Assembly (NCBI GenBank): GCA_007376485.1
Contig: VMGJ01000006.1
Span: forward strand, 779 to 64,778
From: Parcubacteria group bacterium Licking1014_17
Lineage (GTDB): Bacteria > Patescibacteriota > Minisyncoccia > 2-02-FULL-40-12 > IGHO2-01-FULL-4-A
Direction of reading: 5' to 3'
DNA: 64,000 nucleotides
Shown here: positions 27,691-58,374 of the stretch, piece by piece
Layout of the letters: each line of letters opens with the position of its first letter
Numbering within the stretch: the first letter of the stretch is position 1
Program-made: the position numbers and the translations under genes
The notes under the pieces: model-generated
What the model saw: the letters and a program-made list of their open reading frames with translations, nothing else
What the model was told of the DNA's origin: nothing
Databases searched by the model: none

Positions 27691-27718
27691 TTCGCTTTCT
27701 TTTTGTCTTGAATAATCC

Positions 27719-42833: not shown

Positions 42834-43334
42834 ATGAATGAATACGAAAAACCCGAACAAGAAGACGAGGGTTTTGTAAAAAATGAACTCGAGAAATTAA
42901 GAGCAATAAACGATCGTGAATGTGAGTCATTAGCGACGTTTTTGCAGTCTCATATTGATGAAATATATAGATTACTTATTGAAAGAAACAAAGGATCTGC
43001 GGATTTTGAAGGTTTATGCGAAGTTGCCGCGGAGGAACTCCATAAAAGATTAAAAGCCGCCGGTTATGACAGTAAGATGGTTGAAGGAGATCTGGTGGTA
43101 GGCGAGAAGGATTCTTTATCTCATATGATTAATATGGTCAAATTCCCAAACCACTGGGTATTGATTGATCTAACCATCAGGCAATTGCCTTGGTATAAAA
43201 ACAAGAGCTGGCTTCTTGAGGCGTTGCCTCCCGACAACGCAGAAATAAAGAAATTTCTGTATGACCGATATAACTGGTGGCTGGGTCCGAATCATGATTA
43301 TAAAAGGGAGCCATTTGTTAACTGCAAGTCTTGA
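42834..43334 (+). CDS. Small transglutaminase-like (Cys-His-Asp) protein
   Basis: 166 aa. GLCEVAAEELHKRLKAAGY ... HMINMVKFPNHWVLIDLT. Confidence 0.4.
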   Translation: MNEYEKPEQEDEGFVKNELEKLRAINDRECESLATFLQSHIDEIYRLLIERNKGSADFEGLCEVAAEELHKRLKAAGYDSKMVEGDLVVGEKDSLSHMINMVKFPNHWVLIDLTIRQLPWYKNKSWLLEALPPDNAEIKKFLYDRYNWWLGPNHDYKREPFVNCKS

Positions 43335-43443
43335 ATCTCTTGACGACAAAAAAGTCACCGTCCGCGGCCGGGACACAATGAAGCAGGAGAGGGTGGAAAT
43401 AAAAGAATTGGCAGTCTATTTTAGGAAAATACTTGATATATAA
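43333..43443 (+). pseudogene. Displaced duplicate of the glyQS 3' end
   Basis: The 70-nt core at 43333..43402 is about 90% identical to 41647..41716. It encodes ESLDDKKVTVRGRDTMKQERVEI versus the GlyRS C-terminus ESIDDKKVTVRDRDTMKQERMEI. Confidence 0.7.
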
Positions 43444-43700: not shown

Positions 43701-44348
43701 TCAGTTGCCAATTCCAACTTTACAAATTATCGAATCCACCAATTTTTCTTTTGACGACTGGGTTAGTTTTTTTCTCTTGAATAATTTCTCGATCATTAAG
43801 TGGATTAATTCGTGCGCGATAGTGTAATCGGAAAAAGTTATGTCGGATTTCACATCGGGGTTCGCGCGAACATATATTTGGTTGCCCCGCCCAAAGCTTC
43901 CTCCGCTACCGTAAAATGTAATGTAGCAAACATAGGACTCCACAGTTTTAACGTCGGGGATTTTAGTGATTTTTTGAAAAAATCCTCTTTCTGTTTTTTG
44001 CCACTTTTCGCGCAAGATATTCAAAACCGATTTGTATTTACTGAGCGAATAAATAGAATTAAATTCGCGTAAAAATAGAGCGCGATCGCCGTCATTAAGT
44101 AGGTTTATATAACCATAATTAACACTATTTCCCAAGGATTTACTTGTCAGTTTTTTTAATTTCGATTCCAATTGCTTGGAAAACTTCGGTAATATCAATT
44201 CTGACGACCACTTCTTTAGAAATGACATTTTGCAATAAGTCCATAATACCTCCTCGATTTCTTTCTCTTTTGAGATACGGAACTGAACCTTATTTTTTTT
44301 GATGAATTTAGGCAAACAGGAAACAAACCTTACTAAAGTTATTGACAT
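43701..44348 (-). CDS. HExxH putative zinc metallopeptidase (paralog 1 of 3)
   Basis: 215 aa. ITFYGSGGSFGRGNQIYVRANPD...TIAHELIHL. Paralogous to 46933..47469 and 49601..50479. Confidence 0.55.
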   Translation of the reverse strand: MSITLVRFVSCLPKFIKKNKVQFRISKEKEIEEVLWTYCKMSFLKKWSSELILPKFSKQLESKLKKLTSKSLGNSVNYGYINLLNDGDRALFLREFNSIYSLSKYKSVLNILREKWQKTERGFFQKITKIPDVKTVESYVCYITFYGSGGSFGRGNQIYVRANPDVKSDITFSDYTIAHELIHLMIEKLFKRKKLTQSSKEKLVDSIICKVGIGN

Positions 44349-44436
44349 TAGCAGGATTTAATATATTCTAATTTCAGATTAACTGTCCATTAACAATCTG
44401 TCAATTACCCGATTAGGGGACGCGGGGAGTTGTCAA

Positions 44437-44910
44437 ATGGATGAAAAAAACATACTTCGACTCAAGTTGCCATGGCTGTGGGGCACGGACCTGCTTTGTA
44501 CCGCAGGGTACGGACCTGATAGCGGAAGTCCTTATCATGATGATAAGCATAATGCCTTCTACGCGCTTGACTTTGACAAGCCGTGGAGGGGAAATATGAT
44601 GCCGGTTGTGCCGATACTGGCTGTGGAAAAGGGCAATATCGTAACAATTGAGACCAATCCCGAGCATCCTTTTGGATGCCACGTAGTTATTAACCACGGA
44701 GGGGGGTATAAAAGCCTATACGCTCATCTAATGGGAATGCCTGATATACCAGATTTGGTGCGGCAGGGTCAATTGTTGGGCTATATGGGCGAAACGGGAC
44801 ATGCCCAGGGGCCACATCTACACTTCCAACTTTTCTTTAGAAACTTGTGCAGAGAGAAAATCAAACGAGCAATGCCGGCCCGGGTCCACATTCTCGGAGT
44901 TGTTACGTAA
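44437..44910 (+). CDS. M23-family peptidase domain protein (no signal peptide)
   Basis: 157 aa. YHDDKHNAFYALDF (HxxxD) and GETGHAQGPHLHFQL (HxH). Confidence 0.65.
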   Translation: MDEKNILRLKLPWLWGTDLLCTAGYGPDSGSPYHDDKHNAFYALDFDKPWRGNMMPVVPILAVEKGNIVTIETNPEHPFGCHVVINHGGGYKSLYAHLMGMPDIPDLVRQGQLLGYMGETGHAQGPHLHFQLFFRNLCREKIKRAMPARVHILGVVT

Positions 44911-45000
44911 AAAGGTCGAATCTGAAAGGAGAACGCAAGAAGAAAAACGGGAAACCGATTTGAAGAATCTTATTGGGATATTATTTAAATAGGAGAAGAC

Positions 45001-45348
45001 ATGGATACTCTTGAGGAAAAAAAGAATCGATTATGCCAAATCGCTACAGAAGCATTGGAAGATGTGATTAGAGACGGCTTATTGAAAGAAGAAGATAGGG
45101 AAAGCGTAGTAAATGCGATAGGGCACGTTTTGGGAGCATATAACGACCTGAAACAGGAGAAGGATTTTAATAAGCTCTCAAATAGGCTCATTGACGAATT
45201 CGAAAAAGATAAAATAGTTGGGTTGATTTGTATCTTAGAACTTTCCGAGTTTAATAGCAAAGTTGAAATTGAGTTCTGTAAGACCCTGAAAAAACACCGT
45301 GATTTGATACGCAAGGCCATAGAAGCCGATAGCCGCGCTGACAAGTAG
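45001..45348 (+). CDS. Hypothetical helical protein
   Basis: 115-aa ORF, followed by terminator 45378..45399. Confidence 0.4.
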   Translation: MDTLEEKKNRLCQIATEALEDVIRDGLLKEEDRESVVNAIGHVLGAYNDLKQEKDFNKLSNRLIDEFEKDKIVGLICILELSEFNSKVEIEFCKTLKKHRDLIRKAIEADSRADK

Positions 45349-45377
45349 GGGATAGCCGTTTATTTGGGTCTTTCACC

Positions 45378-45399
45378 AGCCGGCTCTGCCGGCTTTTTG
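45378..45399 (+). terminator. Intrinsic terminator agccggc-tct-gccggc plus T-run (the same module as 46565..46587)
   Basis: Identical stem to the terminator after 46204..46530. Confidence 0.55.
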
Positions 45400-45566
45400 T
45401 TGGGGCAAGCTCGTCAGAAAACGCCAAATGTGTGTGCACATTACCCGAGATGTGGATCTCGAAGTAAATATTACCTGTGTTATATTTGAAGCGATAACTG
45501 ATTTGATTATTGTGAACAATCTTATATTGTTTCTAATCCGGAGTTATGTTAGTACTATAGATAATT

Positions 45567-46190
45567 ATGAGTAAAGAAGGTTTTTGGGGAAAATTTGAAG
45601 AAAAGTGTCGCCAGAAGACGGAGGAGTTGCGCAGTAAACGTCTGAAGATGAAGGAAGAAAGGGAAAAAAGATTTGCCGAAAGAGGAGAAAAGCCGGGTTT
45701 AATCGGGTCTTGGTTTGAAATGATGGACACGGCAATTAAATTAAATGATTTTGTGGAAAATAACAGAGGGGAGATAAATGATGCGTTTAGCAGAGCCAAG
45801 GAAACAATAAAAGCGCCGGGATCATTGGACCCCAGAGAGAGGGGAGGAAATTTTAAATTAGCCGCAAAGGGATTAGCTGTTGATTTAGTCGGAGTGGTGG
45901 GAAATTATGAAAGCAGAGTGAGGGAGCGGCAGTTTAAAGAGGAGAGTAGGATTTTGAATAAAATTATAGAAATAAAGGCCGAAAAAGAAAAAATAGAGCA
46001 ATTGGATAATTTGGGGGAGACTATCAAACAAAGACAGCAAGAGGTAGTTGATGATATCAGCAGTTCGGGAAGGTCGATCCCCGATCAAGATGTTACAGAT
46101 AAACTTAGCGAGAAAATCGCGGCAAAACTTGAAAATGCCGACGAAAAGACGAAGAGGGAATTGCTCAAGCTAATTGGATCTTTACCTTAA
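45567..46190 (+). CDS. Hypothetical coiled-coil protein
   Basis: 207 aa, Glu/Lys-rich. Confidence 0.45.
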   Translation: MSKEGFWGKFEEKCRQKTEELRSKRLKMKEEREKRFAERGEKPGLIGSWFEMMDTAIKLNDFVENNRGEINDAFSRAKETIKAPGSLDPRERGGNFKLAAKGLAVDLVGVVGNYESRVRERQFKEESRILNKIIEIKAEKEKIEQLDNLGETIKQRQQEVVDDISSSGRSIPDQDVTDKLSEKIAAKLENADEKTKRELLKLIGSLP

Positions 46191-46203
46191 CGAGGAGGAC
46201 ATT

Positions 46204-46530
46204 ATGAGCGAAGAAAATATTGAGGCAAAAGTTGGGGAACTGAAAGCAAGAATCATTGCCGCGGCAAAACGGCCCGAGCTTGAGCTCGGTGAAAAATATG
46301 GGCAGGAATTGGCCGATAGTATGGAGAAGATACTTAATCTTCTGGATGAACGCGGGCGGAAAGAGCCGACTGTTGATTGGCTTTTGGGTGAGTTTAGAAA
46401 AGAAGAAATAACGGGGCTTTGGCATGTTTCAAATATGACGCTATACATGAAAGCGTTTAAACCTCTTATCATTGGACAAATTCTTGAATGGCTTGAGGAA
46501 ATCAAGGAAGAGGAGAGGAAGAAGAAATAA
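46204..46530 (+). CDS. Hypothetical protein
   Basis: Track ORF 46174..46530. The likely start is the ATG at 46204, after GAGGAGG. Confidence 0.45.
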   Translation: MSEENIEAKVGELKARIIAAAKRPELELGEKYGQELADSMEKILNLLDERGRKEPTVDWLLGEFRKEEITGLWHVSNMTLYMKAFKPLIIGQILEWLEEIKEEERKKK

Positions 46531-46564
46531 GTTTTTTTACTTCACTTTTTGTTCTTCTTTTACC

Positions 46565-46587
46565 AGCCGGCAATGCCGGCTTTTTGT
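46565..46587 (+). terminator. Intrinsic terminator agccggc-aat-gccggc plus T-run
   Basis: Repeated terminator module. See 45378..45399. Confidence 0.55.
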
Positions 46588-46604
46588 TGGGGGGTTGCAT
46601 AGAA

Positions 46605-46667
46605 AGAGTGCTAAATGTGGTGGACGCATACAGGGACTTGACTAAACTCCTATTATTAATGTATTTT
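46605..46667 (+). promoter_or_regulatory. Conserved upstream box plus promoter TTGACT-N18-TATTTT for precursor A
   Basis: Box agagtgctaaatgtggtggacgcatacagg, 46605..46634. A box sequence almost identical to this one occurs at 51910..51941, immediately before the cassette copy at 51945. Confidence 0.45.
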
Positions 46668-46688
46668 TTGAGCAGGAGGTTAAACGCC

Positions 46689-46871
46689 ATGCCACAAGAA
46701 TTGTATGAATGGGTGTCTAACCTTGCCGGTGCCGGAATGTTAGCCGATAGCATACCGGCTGGCACTGGCCCAGCGCAAATGGGGCCGGGCAGTCATTGCG
46801 ACTGCGTTTGCGCGGAATGCGACAATGGCCGTGGGAGCGGCCAGTGCAACTGCGGCCCTAGGGATTGTTGA
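46689..46871 (+). CDS. Candidate RiPP precursor peptide A (60 aa; core HCDCVCAECDNGRGSGQCNCGPRDC)
   Basis: Internal ATG within track ORF 46584..46871, preceded by AGGAGG. Seven Cys in the C-terminal 25 residues. Upstream of the HExxH peptidase and radical-SAM/SPASM genes. Confidence 0.5.
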   Translation: MPQELYEWVSNLAGAGMLADSIPAGTGPAQMGPGSHCDCVCAECDNGRGSGQCNCGPRDC

Positions 46872-46884
46872 CTCCCGCAATTTC

Positions 46885-46918
46885 GTAGCTGCCGGTCTCT
46901 TGGGGGACCGGCAGCTAC
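46885..46918 (+). other. Perfect 13-bp stem hairpin (gtagctgccggtc / gaccggcagctac, 8-nt loop) with no U-tract
   Basis: Sits between the precursor A stop and the start of the HExxH gene (46933). Confidence 0.5.
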
Positions 46919-46932
46919 ACCCATTTCAATAA

Positions 46933-47469
46933 ATGAAAAATATTTCGGTAATAATATCATTTAAACCAATACTCAAGCATTTATTAGAGGTGGTGGTTAA
47001 AAGTCTTGAAGCCGGCAATTATAAAAAATGGGGGCTGAACCCGATTTTACCGCCTCGGCTAAGTGATAATGAAGATTACGGAGTGGCTGCTGAAAGATTT
47101 TGGAATGAATCGGGCTGGTCCGATAGAGTTCAACCTCTCGTGCCCAAAATCAATGACTGGTGGAATAAATTTGGCGCTAAATTTACCGAGTCGTTATCTG
47201 CCGATTTAAAAGTTATAGAACCGGAAAAATATTATATAATACTTACTCCTTTCGGTCCCGGCGGCAGTTATAACACGTCTCAGTCGGCGATTTATGTCAG
47301 AATCACTGATCCAAATGATAATCTGTGGTGGCAGAGAGTTATTGTGCATGAAATCGCGCATTTAGTTAGTGTTAAGCAAGAAAATAAAGACCATGCGCGA
47401 AATGAGGATAGAATAAATAAAATTGTGCGTGAAAAACTTGAAGCTATGGGTATGACTGAATTGTTATAG
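46933..47469 (+). CDS. HExxH putative zinc metallopeptidase (paralog 2)
   Basis: 178 aa. ILTPFGPGGSYNTSQSAIYVRITDP...VIVHEIAHL. Confidence 0.55.
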   Translation: MKNISVIISFKPILKHLLEVVVKSLEAGNYKKWGLNPILPPRLSDNEDYGVAAERFWNESGWSDRVQPLVPKINDWWNKFGAKFTESLSADLKVIEPEKYYIILTPFGPGGSYNTSQSAIYVRITDPNDNLWWQRVIVHEIAHLVSVKQENKDHARNEDRINKIVREKLEAMGMTELL

Positions 47470-47510
47470 CAAATTTTTGTCCTTTTTAAATTGAATATTG
47501 GAGGATTTCG

Positions 47511-48569
47511 ATGGAACAGTATATTTGCCGTCCTCGTGTGATGTGGCTGTCTATTGTTGATTACTGTAACAATAGGTGCCTATGGTGCTATGAACAGTGT
47601 AACGAAGTTCTAGGCCGAAGCATGAGCCTGGATTTGGTGAAAAGAATTTGTAACGCTATGCGATCCGTGGGGGTCAAAAAGTGCATAGTGATAGGCGGGG
47701 AACCCACCCTTCACCCGAATTTTTTTGAAGTGCTTTCAGAGATTAAGGAATGTGGATTCACGATTTCTCTTGTCACGAACGGGCGTCTTATCAGTAAACA
47801 CGAGATAGCCGAAAAATTGTCGCAAACCAGGCCTGATTTTCTGACCATTTCGATTCATGGGTGGTCGCCTGAATCCTATTGCAGGCTGACAAAATCAAAA
47901 AATGGTTTTTCTGAGGTAGCCGAAGGAATGACTCTCCTAAGAAAGCACGGCGTTAAATTTGAGGTGAATATCACCCTCAGTAAATTAACCGCTGGTTTAA
48001 CGGAAGAAATCCTTTCTTTTCTGGAAGCCAACAATATTAAGCACGCCGGATTTAATCTTGCGTCACCTTCGGTATCGGCCCAGAAAACCGTTGCTGAATT
48101 TGTCCCTACGATGCAGGAATTAGCGAGCCAAGCCGTATCCGTTTTCAAGGGCTGCTTGAGTCGGGGAATCAGGCCGTCATTCTTGCTGACCCTCCCTTTC
48201 TGCCTCTTTGGCGATGAGGAATTGTCAGAATTCTTCAAAGCCAGAGCTGTTATATCGGGATGTCAGCTACTATCGGGTTCTGGGATTGTTTTCCAAGCCG
48301 ACGGGTCTATATCCCTTTGCAACCATCTACTGGATTTCAAAATTGCCAATCCTCAACAGACAAGAGAATTGCTTGCTTCGGAAGGCAACTTTCTTGAATT
48401 CTGGAATGCGGAGAAATTGTGTGAAATAAGAAAACAAGCGAATTGTTTCAGGTCTCCTGTTTGCTCCAAGTGCAGTCAATGGGGCATTTGCGGTGCTGGT
48501 TGCATGGTAAGGTGGGCGCATCATAGCCTTTCCGAAGTAGAATTCAGAGAGGTAAATATTAACATCTAG
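47511..48569 (+). CDS. Radical SAM enzyme with C-terminal SPASM-type Cys cluster (RiPP maturase candidate 1)
   Basis: 352 aa. CNNRCLWC (Cx3Cx2C). C-terminal CNHL...CEIRKQANCFRSPVCSKCSQWGICGAGC. Confidence 0.8.
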   Translation: MEQYICRPRVMWLSIVDYCNNRCLWCYEQCNEVLGRSMSLDLVKRICNAMRSVGVKKCIVIGGEPTLHPNFFEVLSEIKECGFTISLVTNGRLISKHEIAEKLSQTRPDFLTISIHGWSPESYCRLTKSKNGFSEVAEGMTLLRKHGVKFEVNITLSKLTAGLTEEILSFLEANNIKHAGFNLASPSVSAQKTVAEFVPTMQELASQAVSVFKGCLSRGIRPSFLLTLPFCLFGDEELSEFFKARAVISGCQLLSGSGIVFQADGSISLCNHLLDFKIANPQQTRELLASEGNFLEFWNAEKLCEIRKQANCFRSPVCSKCSQWGICGAGCMVRWAHHSLSEVEFREVNINI

Positions 48570-48582
48570 GTCTACTCCGTAT

Positions 48583-48616
48583 GCAGATGGTGATTGTATG
48601 CCATCTGCTTTTATTT
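48583..48616 (+). terminator. Intrinsic terminator gcagatgg...ccatctgc plus ttttattt
   Basis: Directly after the radical SAM gene. Confidence 0.55.
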
Positions 48617-48625
48617 AAGAGGCTA

Positions 48626-48654
48626 TTGACAAATACTTTGGCTTGACTTATAAA
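48626..48654 (+). promoter_or_regulatory. Sigma70 consensus promoter cassette, copy 1 (TTGACA-N17-TATAAA)
   Basis: ctattgacaaatactttggcttgacttataaagga. Near-identical copies at 49339..49367 and 51945..51973. Confidence 0.6.
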
Positions 48655-48739
48655 GGAAGTATCAGTGTTGTCAGCTCTTTTGTGCTCTTCAACAATCGAA
48701 ACCGAGGCTAGGGTTTCTAGCCTGAAAGTGAGGTATGAA

Positions 48740-48865
48740 ATGAAAAAATTTCGTCGTGTCGCTCGCGGCAAGCCCTTTTTACCTATATCCGTAAACGAAT
48801 CTCAGTTTGAAAATTCACAGGCAAGAATGTTCTTGCCTGGTTTTTTTAAATTAGATTTTTACTAA
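48740..48865 (+). CDS. Small peptide, 41 aa (MKKFRRVARGKPFLPISVNESQFENSQARMFLPGFFKLDFY)
   Basis: Internal ATG of track ORF 48665..48865, after GTGAGGT. Driven by cassette copy 1. No Cys. Confidence 0.35.
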   Translation: MKKFRRVARGKPFLPISVNESQFENSQARMFLPGFFKLDFY

Positions 48866-48866
48866 T

Positions 48867-49244
48867 TTGGATGAACAAATTAAATTAACTCTTGAGTATA
48901 TTCAAAAATTGACTAAGGGTTGGTACAAATTCAGCAAAGCCACGGAGGCCTATAAAACATCTTTATTTGAATGTATTGCGCACAAGAAAACTGGTTGCAG
49001 CATGAAAGCAAGGTTTGCTCAACTGCTTTTGACTTTTCTTGGTTACGAAGTCGAAATAGTGAGAGGATACTATAAATCTCCTGAGAGATGGACTTTGCAT
49101 GCCTGGGTAAAGGTCAACGGCAAGGAGTACGACCCGACCAGGAAGAATTTTCAAATAACAAGAGACAAACACTCGCGAACAAATCCCGATCCTCACCTCA
49201 CTGATTGGGAACAGGTTTTCGAGAAAATGGAAGGGGAGAATTAA
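48867..49244 (+). CDS. Small transglutaminase-like Cys-His-Asp protein (putative cysteine peptidase)
   Basis: 125 aa. TGCSMKARFAQLLLTFLGYEVEIVRGYY...LHAWVKVNGKEYDPT. Confidence 0.5.
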   Translation: MDEQIKLTLEYIQKLTKGWYKFSKATEAYKTSLFECIAHKKTGCSMKARFAQLLLTFLGYEVEIVRGYYKSPERWTLHAWVKVNGKEYDPTRKNFQITRDKHSRTNPDPHLTDWEQVFEKMEGEN

Positions 49245-49338
49245 CCCCCAACTGAAACTCCATAGGCCGTCAGAATGTGGCATATACATACATTTTAACC
49301 CCCAAATGTCGCTAAGCCGTTGAACCATTACGTTACTC

Positions 49339-49367
49339 TTGACAAATACTTTAGCTTGACCTATAAA
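49339..49367 (+). promoter_or_regulatory. Sigma70 consensus promoter cassette, copy 2
   Basis: cttgacaaatactttagcttgacctataaaggagatagttgtt. Confidence 0.6.
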
Positions 49368-49410
49368 GGAGATAGTTGTTTTAAATCTGCGGAAAGGGGG
49401 TGAGGTAATA

Positions 49411-49548
49411 ATGCCCGAAGACCCGGGAACTCTTTCGCTTTTCATTGGTCCCGAGGACGACCAGGTGCCGTCCAAAATGAGTTGTGATTTTGATGTTGAC
49501 TGTTATGACTGCGACTATAACTGCGAGGAGTGCAACAACAGCGATTAA
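49411..49548 (+). CDS. Candidate RiPP precursor peptide B (45 aa; core SCDFDVDCYDCDYNCEECNNSD)
   Basis: Missing from the track because it is under 60 aa. Strong SD AAAGGGGGTGAGG 8 nt before the ATG. 5 Cys and 8 Asp/Glu in the last 21 residues. Followed by a hairpin (49569..49601). Confidence 0.55.
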   Translation: MPEDPGTLSLFIGPEDDQVPSKMSCDFDVDCYDCDYNCEECNNSD

Positions 49549-49600
49549 TAGCTCGTCAGTCGCCCGCTCAAGGCGACTCCGCAAGGAGCCGCCTTGAATT

Positions 49601-50479
49601 TTACCGAATTATTATAGATTTTCTATATTTTGAAAGTAGTTCTGTGTTACTAAAAATCTTGTTTCCGTGTTTTTTCCAAAGCGACATTTTTTCGGAAAGC
49701 TGCCCGTCTATTTTGAAGGCAGAACCTACAAGTTCTTCAATAAAATTTAAAAATGGCAATTTTTGTTCCAGCAAGTTCGCCAGTTGCTTCTCCACGTAGT
49801 CCTTGAAAAGCACAGGGCTATTGCCATTAGTTTTTATAAACAACTCTCTTATTTCCGGGTTACCCACTTCTCTAACGCTGAGGATTTCAGAAAGCCCTTG
49901 TTGATTAACAATAGCGGTAGCTACTAATTCTTTAAGTAAATAAACAGCATCTTCACTGATTATAATTCCTGTCCGTTTTTTAATTTCATCCAGATACCCC
50001 CAAAAAATTATGTGACTGATTTCGTGTATCGCCACATTAAGCAACCTTTTTTCAATGGTCTTCGCTGACTTTAATTCGCCGAGAATAGAATAAAAAAATA
50101 TTTTACCCCTGAACGGCGAAAACGGCAAAATGGTAAAAATTGCCTCATATTTGGCATCTTCCGGCCACTTATAATCCATAATTTTTGATAGTGCCGCAAA
50201 TGCATTGATGCCCCTTTCTTCGAGATGCCGCAAATTTGATTTCCTGATTTTTTCAATCGTATCGGCGTTATCTTTATAAAAATCGGACACATATCCGCTG
50301 ATTCTTTGCCGGAAATCAGTACCATTAGATAACTCGGCCAGCTTGGGATGGGCTTTAAAAATTGAAAACTTTGCCTGGACAAAGTAGGGGTGATTAACAA
50401 AACTCCAAAACAAGTTTGCATCTTCCCGCGGGTCTATTTTTATTGTTATTTTTGGGAGCTTAATTTGCTTTGTTACCAT
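49601..50479 (-). CDS. HExxH putative zinc metallopeptidase (paralog 3)
   Basis: 292 aa. ILPFSPFRGKIFFYSILGELKS...VAIHEISHI. Confidence 0.55.
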   Translation of the reverse strand: MVTKQIKLPKITIKIDPREDANLFWSFVNHPYFVQAKFSIFKAHPKLAELSNGTDFRQRISGYVSDFYKDNADTIEKIRKSNLRHLEERGINAFAALSKIMDYKWPEDAKYEAIFTILPFSPFRGKIFFYSILGELKSAKTIEKRLLNVAIHEISHIIFWGYLDEIKKRTGIIISEDAVYLLKELVATAIVNQQGLSEILSVREVGNPEIRELFIKTNGNSPVLFKDYVEKQLANLLEQKLPFLNFIEELVGSAFKIDGQLSEKMSLWKKHGNKIFSNTELLSKYRKSIIIR

Positions 50480-50548
50480 ACTTTGATTTTTTTTAGGATT
50501 TATTGTAGAATAACATAAGCTACTTTGAAAAGCAAAAGGAGAGAAACC

Positions 50549-51862
50549 ATGTATAGGAGACTGAAATCGCCATTAATTGTTCAGATTGAGTTGACCGAGG
50601 CATGTATTAATAAGTGCCAACATTGCTACAATCCCCGACGATTAGAAGGTAATCACAGGCAAAGTTTTCCGGAAGATAGAGCCAAACTCGCCGTGGACAT
50701 CTTGGCCAAGGAGGAAGTTTTCCATGTCGTTTTGACCGGAGGCGAGCCGTTGTTAAATCGCGGATGTCTTTTCCGGCTTGCCAAAGAAATTTCTGCGGCC
50801 GGGATGACTTTCGGACTTAACTCCACTCTCTTTGGGTTTTCTCAAAAAGACGCAATAAGTCTGAAAAAATTGGGCATTCTTAATATCCTAGCAACCCTAT
50901 TGGGATCAACCAAAGAAAAGCATGATGCTCTGACCATGAACTCTGAATCCTTTACAAAGACCATTGAAGGGTTGGGTATCGCCTTGGAGGCAGGCATACT
51001 AGTTGGTGTGAATATGGTTGTCACAAACTACAATATCGCAGACATAAGAGACACCGCCAAGCTGGTTAAGACATTGGGAATCCGGTCTTTCTATGCGACA
51101 AAAGCTGCTTGTCCAAGTGATCAAAGAGAATTCAAAGATGCGATACTGGGCAAGGATCATTTTAGAAATTATCTGGAAGAGCTAGACTTGATTGGCCGGG
51201 AGGAGGGGCTTAAATGCGGTTTTCTGGAAGCTTATCCGCTTTGCGGCATGAAGAACTTGGGGAAATACGCCTACTTTCTCGGCCGTCGCTGCCTAGCCGG
51301 TATAACAAGCATGACCATAGCCGCTGATGGCAATATCAGGCCGTGTTCGCACTCTGACATCACGTACGGCAATATTTTCGTTGATGGCGGCATAGGTAAG
51401 GCATGGAGCAAAATGAGTGAGTGGCCGGATGGTCAATTATTGCCTGCCGATTGCAAAAAATGTCCGTTGCTAAACCGCTGCGGAGGCGGTTGCAGGATGG
51501 ATGCTAAAATCGCCGGTGGGTCAATCGACGCCATGGATCCGTTCACTTCACTGCCGGATGTTGATTATGTATTCGAACAACTTAAATCCGCCATTAAAGA
51601 TGGAGAAAGGCCACCACTGAACTTGCCGGACAAGATTAAACTGTGTCGCAACGCGAGAATTCGTTCTGAACCATTTAGCGGTGCGGTTTTCCCCCGAGGA
51701 AAACTTGGTACACTTCTGAATTCGGAAGGTATGCGTGTGTTTATGCAATTAGGGAGGGAAGTGCGTGTAACCAAAGAGCTTGTGCAAAACGCTGATTCCA
51801 AAGAAAAAACCGAGGAGTTTCTAAAAAAGCTTCTGTCTAAATCTATCATTGAACCCGCATAG
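50549..51862 (+). CDS. Radical SAM enzyme with SPASM-type C-terminal Cys cluster (RiPP maturase candidate 2)
   Basis: Track ORF 50525..51862 starts on TTG. The likely ATG is at 50549, after AAAGGAGAG. CINKCQHC (Cx3Cx2C). C-terminal CSHSD...CKKCPLLNRCGGGCRMD. Confidence 0.8.
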   Translation: MYRRLKSPLIVQIELTEACINKCQHCYNPRRLEGNHRQSFPEDRAKLAVDILAKEEVFHVVLTGGEPLLNRGCLFRLAKEISAAGMTFGLNSTLFGFSQKDAISLKKLGILNILATLLGSTKEKHDALTMNSESFTKTIEGLGIALEAGILVGVNMVVTNYNIADIRDTAKLVKTLGIRSFYATKAACPSDQREFKDAILGKDHFRNYLEELDLIGREEGLKCGFLEAYPLCGMKNLGKYAYFLGRRCLAGITSMTIAADGNIRPCSHSDITYGNIFVDGGIGKAWSKMSEWPDGQLLPADCKKCPLLNRCGGGCRMDAKIAGGSIDAMDPFTSLPDVDYVFEQLKSAIKDGERPPLNLPDKIKLCRNARIRSEPFSGAVFPRGKLGTLLNSEGMRVFMQLGREVRVTKELVQNADSKEKTEEFLKKLLSKSIIEPA

Positions 51863-51881
51863 CTAAAAAGTTTGGAGCTAC

Positions 51882-51907
51882 AGCCACCAGAGAATGGTGG
51901 CTTTTTG
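51882..51907 (+). terminator. Intrinsic terminator agccacca-gagaa-tggtggct plus T-run
   Basis: Directly after radical SAM gene 2. Confidence 0.55.
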
Positions 51908-51909
51908 TT

Positions 51910-51973
51910 AGAGTGCCAAATGTGGTGGGGACGCATACAGGCTATTGACAAATACTTTGGCTTGACCTATAAA
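51910..51973 (+). promoter_or_regulatory. Conserved upstream box plus sigma70 consensus promoter cassette, copy 3
   Basis: Box agagtgccaaatgtggtggggacgcatacagg, 51910..51941. TTGACA 51945..51950. TATAAA 51968..51973. Confidence 0.6.
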
Positions 51974-52058
51974 GGAGATAGTTGTTCTTTAGGTGCTTTT
52001 TTGGCTCTTTAACTCAAAGGTTTCATTTTCCGGCTATGCCGGCGAAAGGAGGAAGGAA

Positions 52059-52946
52059 ATGAAGTTTTTACCGATTTTTGGGACAAAGGCGGCTTTCGTC
52101 GCCCTCATGGTGGTGCTTTGTCTTTTTACCATCACTGGCTGCGACAGAAACAGCCCCACCAAGCCCGAGCCGTCACCGACCCCAACCCCAGAACCGCAAT
52201 TTACCCCCACCCCTACCCCCGTATTTACTCCGACTCCAAGACCGACTTCAACTCCAACCGCTACTCCGACCCCGACTCCAACACCCACGCCAACTCTCGT
52301 GAATGACGCAGAATGTGTTAGGGTAAAAGCTAATTCCCCTGTTGAGGTGGGGGCGGTTTTTACCGCCACGGTGAAGATGAGAAACACGGGGACGAAGCCC
52401 TGGTCCGATCCGGATGCGGATGGTAATGACCAAGTCCACAAATTAGTAGGATTAAACCCCCTTACCTGGGGGACAAACGAAGTTAGTCTTCCATCCTCAC
52501 CAATAAACCCCGGGCAGACTGTAGTTTTTCACGTTACTGCCACAGCCCCAACTACAGCAGGGACATACGGCTTCAGCTGGCAAATGATCGAGGGCCAGGA
52601 ATGGTTTGGCGAGCTATGTTCGAAGGACATAATCGTCAATAATCCTGTCCTGATGTCAATTATTGTGACGTACCCTGTGTCTGGGTCTGTGTGGCACCAT
52701 GACGACGAAGTTGTAGTCATGTGGAATAGCACAGGCTATCCTGCCGATTTTGTTTACAGAATTTACGCGAAGTCGGGCAATTGGGAAAAAGACCTGGGCA
52801 TGAGTCAATACGGGCTACTGCTCTTCTACGTTCCGGCCGACTGGCCGCCTGGGGATTGCACGGTGTTTGTGACTGACCCCGCTTTCCCGCCCAAGACAAA
52901 TAACGGCGTGAGCGGGGACGAGAGCGAGGTTTTCCAGGTAGAGTGA
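52059..52946 (+). CDS. Secreted protein / lipoprotein candidate with long Pro/Thr linker
   Basis: ATG at 52059 after AAGGAGGAAGG. Signal peptide ending ITGC. (TP)n linker. Driven by cassette copy 3. Confidence 0.55.
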
Positions 52947-53032
52947 ATGTTTTTTTCAGGGTGGAGTTTTCGTACTCCACCTTTTTTTATATGTGGACAA
53001 ATTGAAATATTTTTTCGTGTTATAGTCGACAT

Positions 53033-54634
53033 ATGGGGAAAATATCTTTTCGCGCAAAAATCACGATGTCGCTAGTTCCCGTAGTCCTATCCGTGATGTT
53101 GTTTTCTATTTTTAATTTTTTCTCAAATAATTCAAACGCGGATGTTGGTTGCGTCACCCTCGCTCATCCTGTCGCGACTAAAATCAGTACACCAGCGCCC
53201 CCAACTGATTGGTTTATTGGGACAGCCGACAATGACACCGGCTCGCCTTGGGATTTAAATCATATTAAAACCCATATACAATGGTGGCCGAATTCCATAC
53301 CGGTAAAAGAGGTAGTGGTGGGGTCGCACATGGACGATGGCAGTGACCGCGCTGGCTGGTTTATTATGGACTGGGGCTGCTTTAAAGATTTACCCGGGAA
53401 TGATGTTGCTGAAAAAGAAAGGGGTGTTAATGAAGGAGGAGAATTCTGGGTAGGAACAAGCACCGCGAATTTAAACGTCTCCCCCACAAACCTATCAGGT
53501 AACCCCAAGGCTACGGGCTGGAAGTATGTAAGCAGCATATCAGAATCCGGTTGTAGCAATTGTCTCAATAGTTTCGATATAGGATTAAATAACGGCGCTG
53601 AATACAAATATGTCTATTTTTGGAGCAATGGCAGTCCGTCAGGATGTGTTGGGGGTATTTGTGAGGGCGTATCCGGTTCTAATGTTGAATACATCAATAT
53701 AGTAAATCCGCAGACTGAGACCGCGACTCCCACGCCCACGCCAACCCCTTCTGTTGATATTAAAGCCAACGGTTCGGACAATCCGCCGCAAGTAACATAC
53801 GGCGGGCAAGCGACGTTGACTTGGACTTCCAAGAACGCCACATCCTGCCAAGTTCCTCCGAATTCTCCGGAGGTGGATTGGTCGGGGGATAAGCCACTGA
53901 AGAACACCACCGGCGAGGTGAAGGCCAATCTTACCAATCCGACTTATACATATAAGATTAAATGTTCGGATTCTAAAGGCAATTCGGCCAGCGACTCGGT
54001 TACGGTCAAAATAGCCCTGCCGCCCCTCCTGGTGGATTTGAAAGCCGCGCAAAATGAAAGTTCGTTTGCCGACCCCGTGTCCGGAAGCGTGCCGTTTTTG
54101 GGGATTGATTTGAAAGCTACTGTCAGCAATGTTGCGAGCGGCTCTTTGAGTTATTATTTTTACTGCCAAAACACATTGGGCACCAGCGCGGCGATAAGTT
54201 CAAGCTATAACCCTTATCAAATAAATAATCTTTGCGATTACTGGGACCAAAATGGCGGGACTTATACCGCTAAAGTTCTGGTGAAGCAGGGGAGCAGGAC
54301 CGCCACCGACACGGCGACAATCACCTCGGTAAAAAATAACCTGCCGCAGGTTCTGAATGTGAAAGCTGAATCCGCCAACGGCTGTTTCTTGAGCGGCGGA
54401 CCGACCGAAATTATCAGCTGGACTTACAAAGACATTGATAACGACCCGCAGTCGGGATTCAAGGTGGTCGTCCATAAAGGGACTGCCACCGGTCCCGTAA
54501 TTCAGGATTCCTGTTCAAAAGGCACCTGCGCTCCGGGAAACACTTCCGCTTCCTATACCGTTACCGATTTGGAATGGGGGCAGAATTATTCGGTTGAGGT
54601 TTTCGTCTGGGATAAAAAGATGAATCCCGAATGA
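53033..54634 (+). CDS. Secreted protein with Pro/Thr linker and beta-rich C-terminal domains
   Basis: 533 aa. N-terminal hydrophobic signal. [10 protein letters not shown] linker. Confidence 0.55.
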   Translation: MGKISFRAKITMSLVPVVLSVMLFSIFNFFSNNSNADVGCVTLAHPVATKISTPAPPTDWFIGTADNDTGSPWDLNHIKTHIQWWPNSIPVKEVVVGSHMDDGSDRAGWFIMDWGCFKDLPGNDVAEKERGVNEGGEFWVGTSTANLNVSPTNLSGNPKATGWKYVSSISESGCSNCLNSFDIGLNNGAEYKYVYFWSNGSPSGCVGGICEGVSGSNVEYINIVNPQTETATPTPTPTPSVDIKANGSDNPPQVTYGGQATLTWTSKNATSCQVPPNSPEVDWSGDKPLKNTTGEVKANLTNPTYTYKIKCSDSKGNSASDSVTVKIALPPLLVDLKAAQNESSFADPVSGSVPFLGIDLKATVSNVASGSLSYYFYCQNTLGTSAAISSSYNPYQINNLCDYWDQNGGTYTAKVLVKQGSRTATDTATITSVKNNLPQVLNVKAESANGCFLSGGPTEIISWTYKDIDNDPQSGFKVVVHKGTATGPVIQDSCSKGTCAPGNTSASYTVTDLEWGQNYSVEVFVWDKKMNPE

Positions 54635-54646
54635 GACAGCAATAGT

Positions 54647-54904
54647 ATGTTTTACACGTATGTGCTAAAAAATAAGAATAATCGTTTGTACACTGGATTC
54701 ACTTATGATCTACGGAAACGCTTCAAGGAGCACAATGACAAAAAGTCAGAATATACAAAGCATCGTGGCCCCTATGAATTGATATACTATGAGGCGTGTC
54801 TTAATGAAAATGATGCTCGCCAAAGAGAAAAATATCTTAAATCTGGGACGGGTAAACGTTATCTCAAAGATAGATTGAAGCGTTTCCTGTCTCATACGGG
54901 ATGA
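54647..54904 (+). CDS. GIY-YIG nuclease-domain small protein
   Basis: 85 aa. FYTYVL...LYTGFTYDLRKRFKEHN matches the GIY-YIG motif. Confidence 0.7.
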   Translation: MFYTYVLKNKNNRLYTGFTYDLRKRFKEHNDKKSEYTKHRGPYELIYYEACLNENDARQREKYLKSGTGKRYLKDRLKRFLSHTG

Positions 54905-54924
54905 ACCCCTAAAGGCGCAAAGAA

Positions 54925-55851
54925 ATGAGCAAGAATAAATTTTTAAATAAAAAAACTATACTGCCGGTGATTTTGACGGTGTTGGTGATGAGTGCTGTTG
55001 TTTTTTTGGGAACCAGAGAAGGCAATATAGCGATTGGCGCCACGCCTACACCGACGAAAACCAAGACGCCAACACCTACTCCGCATCCAACTTCTACCCC
55101 GATTCCAACAAAGACTCCAACAAAAACACCTACTCCAACGCCGACTAAAACTTTGACCCCGACGCCTACGCCAACAGCGTCATTGCCGCCTCCTCCGAGT
55201 CAGCCGACAATCACCGCGGCGGGGGATTGCTATTCGGGGCCCTTCACTGCCCAGATTTCATGGACGGGCGCGCCCGGTTCCGGTTTTTACGTGGACGTAG
55301 ATGTCAATGAGTCCACTTTTTATGATTATTCTTTCTACAATAAATCCGCCGGCACGAGCACTCAAACCGATTCGGCGAATTTTCTCGGCGGCTGGCCAAG
55401 CCAAGACCAAACTTTGGTGATGATGCCCGGCGTTACTTATTACGCCAGAGTTTATAACGGCCAACACAGCCCGACGAGCGACCCCTTCATAAAACCGTAT
55501 TGCCCGAGCGTGCCGGGAACAACGAGCTGGATTTCGCCGCCTTATCCCTGCCCTCAACCAAATTTTGAATACAATCCGGTAAAGCCGTCATCGCAGAAAC
55601 CGGTGGACTTTACCGACAAGACCGTCTTTGGCGACGGCGGCACGCATCTTTTCAGCTGGGATTTCGGCGATAACAACACCAGTTCCGACCAGAATCCGAC
55701 GCATACTTACACCGCCAGCGCCAGCTACAACGTGACTTTGACCGCGACGGACAATTCTTTGACCCCACCCTGCACCTGCTCCGTCACCAAACCTCTAAAC
55801 ATCGGCAAGAAAAAATCTCCTCCGATTTTCAAAGAAGTGAGGCCAATGTGA
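54925..55851 (+). CDS. Secreted protein with Pro/Thr linker and C-terminal PKD-like domain
   Basis: 308 aa. FSWDFGDNNTSSDQNPTHTYTASASYNVTLTATDN is a PKD signature. The last 33 nt are duplicated at 56023..56055. Confidence 0.6.
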   Translation: MSKNKFLNKKTILPVILTVLVMSAVVFLGTREGNIAIGATPTPTKTKTPTPTPHPTSTPIPTKTPTKTPTPTPTKTLTPTPTPTASLPPPPSQPTITAAGDCYSGPFTAQISWTGAPGSGFYVDVDVNESTFYDYSFYNKSAGTSTQTDSANFLGGWPSQDQTLVMMPGVTYYARVYNGQHSPTSDPFIKPYCPSVPGTTSWISPPYPCPQPNFEYNPVKPSSQKPVDFTDKTVFGDGGTHLFSWDFGDNNTSSDQNPTHTYTASASYNVTLTATDNSLTPPCTCSVTKPLNIGKKKSPPIFKEVRPM

Positions 55852-56022
55852 GGAACTCACGCCGTTTTAAGCGGGCGAGCCCCCTCGCTACGCGCAAACC
55901 CCCAGCGAGGGTTCGCGCTGCCTTGTGACCTCGCTCGTCCCCCCGCAGAACCTGCAGGGGGACACCATGCCCGCTCGGTCACAAAGGCCGCTTGAGGGCC
56001 TGCCCGCTTTACCATGATGAGC
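55852..56022. repeat. GC-rich 171-bp insert flanked by 33-bp direct repeats (55819..55851 and 56023..56055)
   Basis: Repeats cctccgattttcaaagaagtSaggccaatgtRa, 31/33 identical. The insert is far more GC-rich than its surroundings and contains compound hairpins. Confidence 0.6.
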
Positions 56023-56041
56023 CCTCCGATTTTCAAAGAAG

Positions 56042-56560
56042 TCAGGCCAATGTAATGTAGTCAAGAAAATACTTTAGTACCGGCAGTTGCAAGGGGAAAA
56101 ATATCTCCGGTTTTGTTTGTAGCATCTCTTTTAATTCTGAAATGGTTACCCATTTCGGGTCTTTGACCTCGGCAGGATCAGTTTTAACGTCTCCTTTAGT
56201 TTCACATAGAAAAACAAATCCAATCCAAGGCAAACCGTTTTCAGATTTGAGTATTTGCTGGCAAATGAAAGGTTTAAAAGCGAAGAACTTATCCCGATTT
56301 TCATGCTCTAAAACCCGGGTTTGATAATCGTCAATGATTTTTGTAATTTCAAGACCGCACTCTTCCTTAACTTCTCGCCTTAATGCGTCATAAACATTTT
56401 CATAAGGTTTTATAACTCCTGCCGGTATTTCAATCATACCCGAATAGGCAGGACTTACTTCTGGCTTCCAGCGTGTTTGGATAAATACCTCCTTTTCTTT
56501 TTTATCTGCGTTATTTCGTATTAATATTGCCGAAACTACCGCCTTTATTTCTGTTTCCAT
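56042..56560 (-). CDS. NUDIX hydrolase
   Basis: 172 aa. Nudix box G...REVKEECGLEI. Confidence 0.75.
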   Translation of the reverse strand: METEIKAVVSAILIRNNADKKEKEVFIQTRWKPEVSPAYSGMIEIPAGVIKPYENVYDALRREVKEECGLEITKIIDDYQTRVLEHENRDKFFAFKPFICQQILKSENGLPWIGFVFLCETKGDVKTDPAEVKDPKWVTISELKEMLQTKPEIFFPLQLPVLKYFLDYITLA

Positions 56561-56575
56561 ATTTGATTGTTTGTT

Positions 56576-57238
56576 TTAATATTTTTGAGCCATAAAATTT
56601 ATAAACTGTGTTTCAATTTTATCCCAAATTTCACTTGTTCTGCCCATTTTAACCAGTATTAGGTCATGTTTTACTATAAGTTCTTTGATTAATTGCTCGC
56701 TCCAGAGTCTACGAATATGCCCGCCGCCATTTTCATAAAGGTGCGGGCAGATTTCCTTACTGGACTTTATTTTGGAGTTTGTGCCTGTTTTGCCCTCAAT
56801 CATAATATAACCTTTGTTTTTCAATAGTATCTTGCAGCGGCTGAAAAAATCATCCAATTCCTTATCTGTTAGGTGAAGTGATGAACGTGAATATACGGCG
56901 TCGATGCTTTCTGGCACATTAAGCGGCAGCGAACGTGCATCCGCAACAATCGGAGATACTTTTTCGATGGTGTTGTCGCGTTTTGATGCTTCTCTACATT
57001 GTCTAAGGGCATTGAACGAAAAATCAAGAGCCAAGACCTTACAATTTTTCTCGCGGGCGAAATATCACGCGTCTCTTCCATTAGCCGCGCCTATCTCAAC
57101 AATCGTTCCGTCTCTATGCAATAGCTTGATGCATTGCAAAGCAAACAAGTTGGGAGTGCCTTCAATCTCTCTGGATTCTTCCTCGCGCCGCTTATGTTGG
57201 TCCTCCCATAACTCTTTCTGTCCCTTAATTTTATCCAT
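56576..57238 (-). pseudogene. Class I SAM-dependent methyltransferase interrupted by a single in-frame TGA (57065..57067)
   Basis: ATG at 57238, then ...TIVEIGAANGRDA-TGA-YFAREKNCKVLALDFS... continues in the same frame to the stop at 56576. Motif I and the motif II acidic residue are intact. Confidence 0.6.
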
Positions 57239-57327
57239 TATTTTGTAATTATAACATATCTTGAAATTATTTCAGGATTATTGTACCATTCCATATAGTT
57301 TTGTTCTTTGTTGCGGAGGGAAATATT

Positions 57328-57657
57328 ATGTGTAGAAAGGAAATGACGCCAGAGAAATTTTATGAAGAGCTGGCCGCGGGTTGCAGTGATTTCACGGATG
57401 TAATTATCATAGGTAATATATTGCTTTCGGACCGTAATATTAAAAAAAGTATTATTATGGTTCGGTCGAGAGTAACGGGCAGGTTGGGGTTCCAATCGCT
57501 AGTTATTACCGGAGATTTGAACTTGAGCGGATCTCGGATTGCAGGCGATCTCCTCCTCGATAATTGCAGAGTATCGGGGAAGTTTAGTGTTAAAGGAGCC
57601 AGAGTAAAAGGCAGAAGACATATTGCTGACGTTCAATGCAAAGAGTATGAAGATTAA
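57328..57657 (+). CDS. Hypothetical small protein
   Basis: Internal ATG of track ORF 57301..57657, preceded by GGAGGG. Confidence 0.35.
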   Translation: MCRKEMTPEKFYEELAAGCSDFTDVIIIGNILLSDRNIKKSIIMVRSRVTGRLGFQSLVITGDLNLSGSRIAGDLLLDNCRVSGKFSVKGARVKGRRHIADVQCKEYED

Positions 57658-57782
57658 CGCAAGCACAAGTGCATCTCTAGAAGCCCCAAATCCTATTGGG
57701 GCTGTTTTTTAAACAGGTTGAGTTTTATGATTTATTTTGACCTGCTTTGCTACGCCAAAACTTTCCTAATTTAAAGCGGGAT

Positions 57783-57916
57783 TACATTTTATGCCGCAAA
57801 ACTGCCTTTGAGCAGTACAGCGAGCCAAGTTTTGCTTGGTCCGCCTTGGGCGGAAAACTTGGCGAGGTATAAGCGGAGATTTTCGCTGGAGAAATCGAAG
57901 CATCTGCGAAAAGGCA
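57783..57916. repeat. Nested inverted-repeat element: 17-bp perfect terminal IR gccgcaaaactgccttt / aaaggcagttttgcggc enclosing a 9-bp IR and an inner hairpin
   Basis: Seen directly. Lies between convergent genes. MITE-like or a complex bidirectional terminator. Confidence 0.5.
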
Positions 57917-57950
57917 GTTTTGCGGCCACGAGGGGCGATGTTCTTAAGCT

Positions 57951-58256
57951 TTATTTTATCCGGTTTTCCAGAGTGATAACGCGGCGCTCAAGAGCTGAAA
58001 ACTCATCTATATCCACCTTTCTTTTTAGAGAGGTTTTGATGAATTCAAGGTCCGTTTTCACTATCCCCATATCTTCCGCCAGCAAGTCAAACTTTCCGTT
58101 GAGGTCGTCAACCTTGCCCTCTATTTTGACGACTTTGTCTTTTATAAGGGGAATCTGGCTGGTTTGTTCCGCCAGCAAATCAAACTTATCGTTAAAATCT
58201 TCCAGCAAGGCGCCTATTTCTATTTTGTTTTCTTTTGCCGACCTTTTGGTTTTCAT
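57951..58256 (-). CDS. Coiled-coil protein with internal DKFDLLAE repeats
   Basis: 101-aa ORF with a duplicated ~30-aa segment. Confidence 0.45.
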   Translation of the reverse strand: MKTKRSAKENKIEIGALLEDFNDKFDLLAEQTSQIPLIKDKVVKIEGKVDDLNGKFDLLAEDMGIVKTDLEFIKTSLKRKVDIDEFSALERRVITLENRIK

Positions 58257-58374
58257 AACCTGATTTTAGCAGATCGGACCTGCAAGTCAAAAAAGCAATA
58301 ATGTTTGCCGCCTAGCACGATTGCCAACGCGGCGTTCCTCGTGTAAAACTTAATATAGGCGTAATTTTATTTTC

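Follow-up and report, generated by a model that had tools for sequence, protein, structure and literature searches.

The sigma-70/sigma-A promoters of Escherichia coli and Bacillus subtilis follow the pattern TTGACA-N17-TATAAT. Phages of the T7 type carry many near-identical 23-bp promoters, all of them read by one dedicated polymerase. In the plantaricin (pln) locus of Lactobacillus plantarum C11, five operons have two 9-bp repeats with a 12-bp spacer directly upstream of the -35 element, and these repeats are bound by PlnC/PlnD (PMC2714321). Here, we describe a promoter-like cassette that occurs three times in a gene cluster of Parcubacteria group bacterium Licking1014_17. The DNA analyzed, referred to as the window, comprises 64,000 nucleotides (nt) of a 65-kb contig of this metagenome-assembled genome (assembly GCA_007376485.1, contig VMGJ01000006.1, positions 779 to 64,778 of the forward strand; NCBI proteins TSC91109–TSC91119). 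The cluster is a radical S-adenosylmethionine (rSAM) peptide maturation cluster of the kind associated with ribosomally synthesized and post-translationally modified peptides, of peptide-antibiotic type.

The 32-nt core of the cassette (TTGACAAATACTTTGGCTTGACCTATAAAGGA) is found on the plus strand at 48626–48657 (one mismatch), 49339–49370 (one mismatch) and 51945–51976 (no mismatch), with a chance expectation of 0.00 copies from 100 dinucleotide shuffles. A repeat search of the whole window returned the same three-member family and no further member. Each copy contains TTGACA, a spacer of exactly 17 nt and TATAAA, followed by GGA. The substitutions among the copies are two, each a single spacer change, and the conservation of the spacer matches that of the hexamers. 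Copy 1 (48620–48657) has its -35 element at 48626–48631, its -10 element TATAAA at 48649–48654, the discriminator GGAAGTA and a predicted start near A48661. The corresponding elements of copy 2 (49336–49380) are at 49339–49344 and 49362–49367, with the discriminator GGAGATA and a predicted start near A49374, and those of copy 3 (51939–51986) are at 51945–51950 and 51968–51973, with a predicted start near A51980. Copy 3 is the most similar to both others: it shares 37 of 38 positions with copy 1 by local alignment (48620–48657 versus 51939–51976, with weaker, gapped similarity extending to 48693/52013) and 43 of 45 with copy 2 (49336–49380 versus 51942–51986), while copies 1 and 2 share a block of 35 nt (32/35 identical).

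A first-pass annotation of this DNA had placed the three copies at 48626, 49339 and 51945, and the core confirms these positions exactly. It had also described a consensus -35, an exact 17-nt spacer and a near-consensus -10, as is found in all three copies, and it had correctly named the genes downstream, which are a 41-residue open reading frame (ORF; ATG at 48740), precursor B (ATG at 49411) and a lipoprotein with a Pro/Thr linker (ATG at 52059). Its description of a 45-nt repeat with one to three mismatches, however, fits copies 2 and 3 only: the 45-mer occurs with at most three mismatches at just two positions, 49336 and 51942, whereas copy 1 has seven mismatches over 45 nt and diverges past ...TATAAAGGA (counted directly from the sequence). 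The conserved initial transcribed region that it reported is mostly the discriminator GGA; copy 1 diverges from there on, and the next 10 nt are common to copies 2 and 3 only.

In form, the cassette is an ordinary kind of element, a conventional promoter. Measured against the sigma-70 consensus, each copy has 11 of the 12 hexamer positions and a spacer of the optimal 17 nt; the -35 hexamer is matched at all six positions and the -10 hexamer at five, including the A at -11, with the T at -7 replaced by A in every copy. The second base after the -10 element is G in all copies, as in sigma-70/sigma-A promoters, and there is no TG extension. The copies are all intergenic and co-oriented, with -10-to-ATG distances of 86, 44 and 86 nt for copies 1, 2 and 3, respectively. 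Each start codon downstream of a cassette has a Shine-Dalgarno sequence, and the base 7 nt past the -10 element, the predicted start, is A in all three (48661, 49374 and 51980). Copies 1 and 3 lie 10 and 35 nt past intrinsic terminators of the preceding rSAM genes. The first of these terminators, that of the rSAM-352 operon (48583–48616, plus strand), has a 10-bp stem followed by TTTTATTT; the second, that of the rSAM-437 gene (51882–51909, plus strand), has an 8-bp stem followed by TTTTTGTT. Canonical promoters are also present elsewhere in Licking1014_17, such as that of the transfer-messenger RNA (tmRNA) gene (TTGCCA-N17-TGATATAAT) and a perfect TTGACA-N17-TATAAT at 16455 on the minus strand. 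A relaxed scan of the window for sites with a match of at least 11/12 gave ten, the three cassette copies among them. The consensus match, spacing, placement, terminators, canonical promoters elsewhere and related clusters (see below) all agree, in silico, with the earlier claim of a sigma-70 promoter, and the cassettes are very probably functional promoters. Rfam gave no match to a known cis-regulatory RNA at the gathering score in the window and none at E≤1 in 46500–52200 (two chance-level matches lie elsewhere), and the folds of the 5' untranslated regions (5'UTRs) are no better than shuffles (z-scores -0.5, +1.2 and 0.0).

In the DNA sampled, the cassette is confined to the cluster. No further copy with up to 8 mismatches over 32 nt was found in the rest of the window, in the 10 kb past its 3' end or in the 3.2 kb before its 5' end. 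A genome-wide count had been proposed as a check; over the ~77 kb of genome sampled, it gives three copies, all within 3.35 kb and none beyond the cluster. The pattern TTGACAAATAC-N6-TTGAC-N-TATAAA has 0 matches in GTDB genomes and JGI metagenomes, and no relatives are available for DNA-level footprinting.

Comparison with the other repeated promoters brings out both likenesses and differences. As in the pln locus, several units of one peptide-production locus, precursor genes included, have a promoter-region sequence in common, and this implies that they are expressed coordinately. In contrast to the pln boxes, the repeated sequence here is the core promoter itself, not a box above the -35 element, and its sole internal direct repeat is TTGAC, present twice at a period of 17 nt. 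Moreover, no ~9-bp repeat pair with a 12-bp spacer, as expected for a pln/blp/com-type system, is present upstream of the -35 element in all copies. Pfam searches of the ORFs tested from ~31 to 64 kb found no regulator, sigma factor, histidine kinase or response regulator, unlike the pln locus with its PlnC/PlnD proteins. Like the T7 promoters, the copies are near-identical, spacer included, and precede functionally linked units; unlike them, they are not accompanied by a gene for a dedicated polymerase or sigma factor, and their hexamers are of the host housekeeping type. Parallels are also found in other Patescibacteria.

The family of the rSAM/SPASM enzyme rSAM-437, encoded in this cluster, is widespread in Patescibacteria, and 80 loci were fetched. 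The orthologs are usually accompanied by a divergently transcribed HExxH protein of ~290 residues and a small Cys-rich precursor (~45 residues), as in the window. Self-comparison of the loci showed that many have internally repeated promoter cassettes of their own before unrelated genes. Locus L018 is the closest parallel, with three copies of TTGACT-N17-TTATAT before rSAM-346, rSAM-435 and a secreted 163-residue protein. L055 has three copies of TTGACA-N17-TATAAT with a conserved leader hairpin, the third of which has kept the hexamers and leader with a diverged spacer. L033 has five copies of TTGCAA-N17-TATATT, and L004 has three to four copies of a TTGACT-N14-TGC-TTTTCT type with an extended -10, which stand ahead of a precursor gene and of two rSAM genes; L015, L010, L019 and L023 have two to three copies each. 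These eight loci thus resemble the window in gene content and in having two to five near-identical promoter copies, some with leaders, before unrelated genes, L018 even before a secreted protein. They differ from it in that the sequences are unrelated between genomes and in the extent of the conserved block, which covers -35 to -10 only, a long leader with a hairpin, or the -35 side only. Upstream regions of rSAM-437 orthologs recur elsewhere in the same locus (same orientation, at least 25 nt, at least 88% identity) in 18 of 80 cases, compared with 40 of 394 for other genes (odds ratio 2.6, Fisher p=0.004), although the control genes, taken from the 11-kb loci, include cluster genes and are a weak control for cluster-specific reuse (conservative, but imperfect). 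On the sequences compared, reuse of one promoter is a recurrent habit of the rSAM-437 cluster family, and this recurrence argues for function rather than accident.

A candidate cross-genome extended -35 motif (TTGACAAATA) was discarded, as AATA is merely one common AT-rich tetramer after TTGACA (11/453). In two of the loci, L015 (2662–2746 and 4502–4586) and L033 (692–768, 3617–3693 and 7335–7411), the repeated promoter is followed within ~10–50 nt by a hairpin and T-run; these would be promoter-proximal terminators giving ~50-nt RNAs, or attenuators. Beside another homologous rSAM locus, L067, 36-nt direct repeats with a period of ~62–63 nt and spacers of ~26–27 nt (ATCTACAAAAGTAGAAATCGAATATATGGATTAGAC) occupy 10150–10760, in what looks like a CRISPR (clustered regularly interspaced short palindromic repeats) array.

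We consider it the best explanation, with a probability of roughly two in three (0.68), that the cassette is a housekeeping, sigma-70/RpoD-type core promoter that heads three separately terminated units, and that its copies became near-identical by copying within the cluster and were kept so for matched expression. The core promoter would consist of the -35 TTGACA, the 17-nt spacer, the -10 TATAAA and a G-rich discriminator (GGA). Unit 1 would comprise a short leader or the 41-residue ORF and, beyond a leaky terminator, a transglutaminase-like protease; unit 2 the 45-residue, Cys/Asp-rich precursor B; and unit 3 a surface lipoprotein. The units end in terminators or hairpins at ~48847, ~49590 and ~52990. 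Between about -41 and -4 the promoters hardly differ, and the three units would therefore be transcribed at equal, probably high, strength and would respond alike to anything that acts on RNA polymerase, with the biosynthetic enzymes on different, weaker-looking promoters. Near-identity would have arisen when regulatory modules were copied from place to place within the cluster, by non-reciprocal recombination or short-patch conversion: copies 1 and 3 would stem from duplication of an entire promoter and 5'UTR module, and copy 2 would be a 45-nt patch. It would have been retained because matched expression is useful in a regulator-poor genome.

The flanks of the copies bear on this history. 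The first-pass annotation had offered recent duplication or strong selection as the cause of the conservation. Duplication of an old enzyme module can be set aside: rSAM-352 and rSAM-437 share 20% identity, the two HExxH proteins have no significant similarity and the three ORFs behind the cassettes are mutually unrelated, so the identity of the cassettes is not a relic of such an event. What stands is patch-wise copying or constraint on the core. Copies 1 and 3 lie in a homologous 123-nt module of promoter and 5'UTR, in which -35 and ATG are 114 nt apart in either copy. The two modules are identical at 37 of 38 core positions compared with 35 of 85 ungapped positions (~41%) of the 5'UTR, whose similarity is nevertheless above that of shuffles (p=0.0016), and a uniform substitution rate across the module is rejected (P~4e-8). 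The core is therefore either under much stronger constraint than the leader or was recently overwritten by a short copied patch. An alternative origin of the copy 1 ORF, as a truncated 5' end of the lipoprotein gene, was rejected (local alignment not above shuffles, p=0.16).

Related pieces are found in other intergenic regions of the cluster. A degenerate relative lies upstream of precursor A (46605–46667, plus strand): 46605–46648 matches 51910–51956, upstream of and into copy 3, and an upstream motif (GCCAAATGTGGTG) is common to this region and copy 3 only. The region has its own weaker promoter-like site, TTGACT-N18-TATTTT. The cluster also contains a duplicated terminator module (45369–45405 and 46556–46592, plus strand, 34/37 identical), whose copies follow two unrelated small cluster genes, and a third terminator (51884–51909) is 77% similar. 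The 3' regulatory ends of the cluster are duplicated like its promoters, and modules shared in this way form a mosaic across its intergenic regions.

Several points weigh against the interpretation of the cassette as a housekeeping promoter copied for matched expression. The T at -7 is normally invariant in -10 elements, and an A in its place weakens the promoter in E. coli; a scanner that requires T(-7) leaves all three cassette sites unlisted. The G two bases past the -10 element, which favors stable open complexes, could compensate for the missing T. The spacers of sigma-70 promoters are not normally constrained in sequence, and neither spacer nor discriminator need be conserved in this class, so that the conserved spacer requires recent copying or an extra factor. 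The flanks of copy 2 have no homology to those of the other copies, of the kind expected under classical gene conversion. Three copies with two substitutions, and no strain variants or close relatives to compare, do not allow copying to be separated from selection. Within unit 1, a strong intrinsic terminator (hairpin 48818–48839 and a T-run) lies inside the 41-residue ORF, ~16 nt before its stop codon. Finally, the start sites, promoter activity, strength and reason for conservation are all inferred from the sequence, and the comparison of orthologs with control genes has the weakness mentioned above.

The main rival, of low probability, is a regulated promoter, in which a sequence-specific protein (a repressor, an activator or an alternative sigma factor encoded elsewhere in the genome) would bind over the core promoter, across the 32–38-nt block, and switch the three units together. 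Such a protein might read the two TTGAC motifs 17 nt apart, and a further GGGAC/TGGAC lies another 17 nt upstream of the TTGAC pair in copy 3 and upstream of precursor A. A regulator would account for a spacer conserved as strongly as the hexamers, which is otherwise unnecessary, and for conservation of the core far above that of the homologous UTR; bacteriocin loci, in addition, are classically regulons with a shared box in each operon promoter, as in the pln locus (PMC2714321). The cassette itself, however, has no dyad symmetry of the kind expected for a repressor operator, as inverted arms are at most 4 nt, and nothing upstream of -41, where pln-type activators bind, is common to the three copies. 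The Pfam searches described above gave no regulator among the ORFs tested from ~31 to 64 kb, and a cluster-encoded one was not evident by other means: the small cluster proteins of 115, 118 and 207 residues have no sequence match in the PDB, and AlphaFold models of two of them (single sequence, pLDDT (predicted local distance difference test) 76–78) are helical bundles with no Foldseek match at E<0.1 and no significant DNA-binding fold. Furthermore, the third copy in L055 retains the hexamers and leader, but not the spacer.

It is improbable that the repeats are a neutral by-product, that is, recent small intergenic duplications without a promoter role whose likeness to promoters is accidental. 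Near-identity does fit young duplicates, and terminators and other intergenic bits have been duplicated in the same cluster. But on all three occasions the duplicated block is a complete 11/12 promoter that points toward a start codon, the module to which copies 1 and 3 belong is old and has diverged except in its core, and the same layout is built from unrelated sequences in many other clusters.

A role in translation is very unlikely. In that case, the AAGGAG of the cassette would be the Shine-Dalgarno sequence of a small upstream ORF, starting at GTG 48665 in copy 1 and at TTG 51982 in copy 3. The automatic gene call, a 66-residue ORF, does start at GTG 48665, and the 26-codon ORF from TTG 51982 overlaps the lipoprotein ATG at 52059 as ATGA. 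Yet the TTG of copy 2 is followed by a single sense codon before the stop (TTG TTT TAA), the copy 1 start is GTG rather than TTG and lies 3 nt farther from AAGGA than the start of the other two copies, GGAG-4 nt-TTG is a short spacing, and with terminators directly upstream of copies 1 and 3 no transcript would be left to bear AAGGAG.

Equally doubtful is a mobile or recombination repeat (whether a miniature transposable element, the site of an integrase or invertase, or a direct repeat at which deletions reshuffle the cluster), for although direct repeats 713 and 2606 nt apart could mediate deletions and the intergenic regions are mosaic, the cassette has neither terminal inverted repeats nor a stable palindrome of the MITE (miniature inverted-repeat transposable element) or REP (repetitive extragenic palindromic) type, no dispersed copies in ~77 kb or matches in the GTDB and JGI collections, and no recombinase gene nearby, and an independent assembly is identical over the region.

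If the cassettes are active as core promoters, they provide a transcription map of an uncharacterized rSAM peptide cluster from an uncultivated lineage, with three strong, equal, short units (leader/protease, precursor B and lipoprotein) and the enzymes on separate, weaker promoters. The lipoprotein and protease would then be linked functionally to the peptide, beyond what gene content alone tells, and a compact 45-nt promoter would be on offer for heterologous expression. More tentatively, with odds that we consider low, pasting of a promoter, with or without its leader, before every unit may be a general mode of coordination of multi-operon peptide clusters in regulator-poor Patescibacteria; the conserved spacer may then be read by some factor, or active homogenizing may keep the copies identical. 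If so, shared cassettes would define the regulon of each cluster and would here tie the lipoprotein and the transglutaminase-like protease to precursor B. The private repeated promoters of the related clusters point to a simple rule by which regulons can be delimited where a genome encodes few transcription factors. Searches of the literature combining Patescibacteria with RiPP or promoter terms found nothing on repeated promoter cassettes in rSAM clusters; what is modestly new is that rSAM peptide clusters of Patescibacteria repeatedly have private promoter modules present in several internal copies.

The three units differ in organization. The predicted 5'UTR of unit 1 (48661–48739, plus strand, ~79 nt) is homologous and equal in length to that of unit 3 (51980–52058, plus strand, ~79 nt), and both contain a hairpin directly before the Shine-Dalgarno sequence, a small one at 48704–48725 in unit 1 and CCGGCTATGCCGG in unit 3. 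These hairpins differ in sequence, and two sequences cannot establish covariation. The 41-residue ORF behind copy 1 (48740–48865, plus strand) has a good Shine-Dalgarno sequence and is an orphan: among 1.84 billion representative proteins, its only homolog is itself (the 66-residue version of the gene caller), and it is absent from 83 related loci. The genes that flank it have consecutive accessions (TSC91111 and TSC91112), and thus apparently no coding sequence has been deposited at this ORF. These points, together with the terminator inside the ORF, argue against a peptide gene, and the ORF may instead be a leader or short RNA. A putative RNA of ~185 nt from copy 1 has a fold z-score of -3.5, largely owing to the terminator, and copy 1 may yield such an RNA as an alternative to serving the protease gene.

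The transglutaminase-like gene (48867–49244, plus strand, 125 residues, cysteine-protease type; PF13471, PF01841, weak lasso B2 match) starts with a TTG 2 nt past the stop codon of the 41-residue ORF. It has no promoter of its own and is therefore probably expressed from copy 1 by read-through of the terminator, which is possibly a leaky, translation-sensitive attenuator. Precursor B (49411–49548, plus strand, 45 residues) has a Cys/Asp-rich C-terminus and is monocistronic behind copy 2, with a hairpin following; precursor-like homologs are present in five related loci. The lipoprotein of unit 3 (52059–52946, plus strand, 295 residues) contains a lipobox (ITGC), the Pro/Thr linker and an NBR1-type Ig domain (PF16158), and its gene is followed by a terminator at 52958–52990. 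At 52994–53035, the gene for a 533-residue secreted protein has an apparent promoter, TGGACA-N16-TGT-TATAGT, only 6 nt before its ATG, and its mRNA would therefore be leaderless.

The remainder of the cluster consists, in gene order, of the Cys-rich precursor A (46689–46871), a 178-residue HExxH protein and rSAM-352 (47511–48569, 352 residues) ahead of copy 1, and, between precursor B and copy 3, a 292-residue HExxH protein on the opposite strand and rSAM-437 (50549–51862, 437 residues). Both rSAM enzymes stay below the cut-offs of all named NCBIfam maturase families, and the nearest rSAM homolog has 45% identity. Of ten cluster proteins looked up, none has a relative of full length at 90% identity; nine stand as singletons, and the 90%-identity cluster of rSAM-437 holds two additional 51-residue fragments only. 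Housekeeping genes flank the cluster (aminoacyl-tRNA synthetases, RecO, SmpB, tmRNA, an M16 peptidase and a release factor).

Over 44879–59548, the window agrees with an independent ENA assembly at 100% identity. The ENA contig k139_657312 corresponds to the window from 44879 on and is entirely different upstream (window 43929–44878 versus L001 1–950), where it codes for a 175-residue Glu/Lys-rich protein and the window for an M23 peptidase (44437–44910). The cause of this mismatch is either heterogeneity among strains or a chimeric join at position 44879.

Other repeats and small genes were observed in the window and the neighboring DNA. Two paralogous intergenic elements of ~150 nt (6790–6950 and 27554–27710, both plus strand) have 79% column identity and a T-run after them; their consensus fold has 46 pairs, of which five are changed on both sides yet kept, and no Rfam family matches. 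They are candidates for a structured non-coding RNA or 3'UTR element. Three small stand-alone GIY-YIG ORFs (80–86 residues; 54647–54904 of the window, and 12197–12439 and 20063–20323 of L085) are interspersed among secreted-protein genes over ~30 kb of the Licking1014_17 genome. The last 41 nt of a PKD-domain protein gene (55819–55859) recur 204 nt downstream (56023–56063, 88% identity), as if part of the gene's 3' end had been duplicated. A 92-nt direct repeat (41645–41736 and 43331–43422, 83% identity) takes in the 3' end of a class-II tRNA-synthetase-like gene as well as the DNA directly behind the stop codon of a 166-residue ORF (42834–43334), which suggests a duplicated C-terminal (anticodon-binding) segment.

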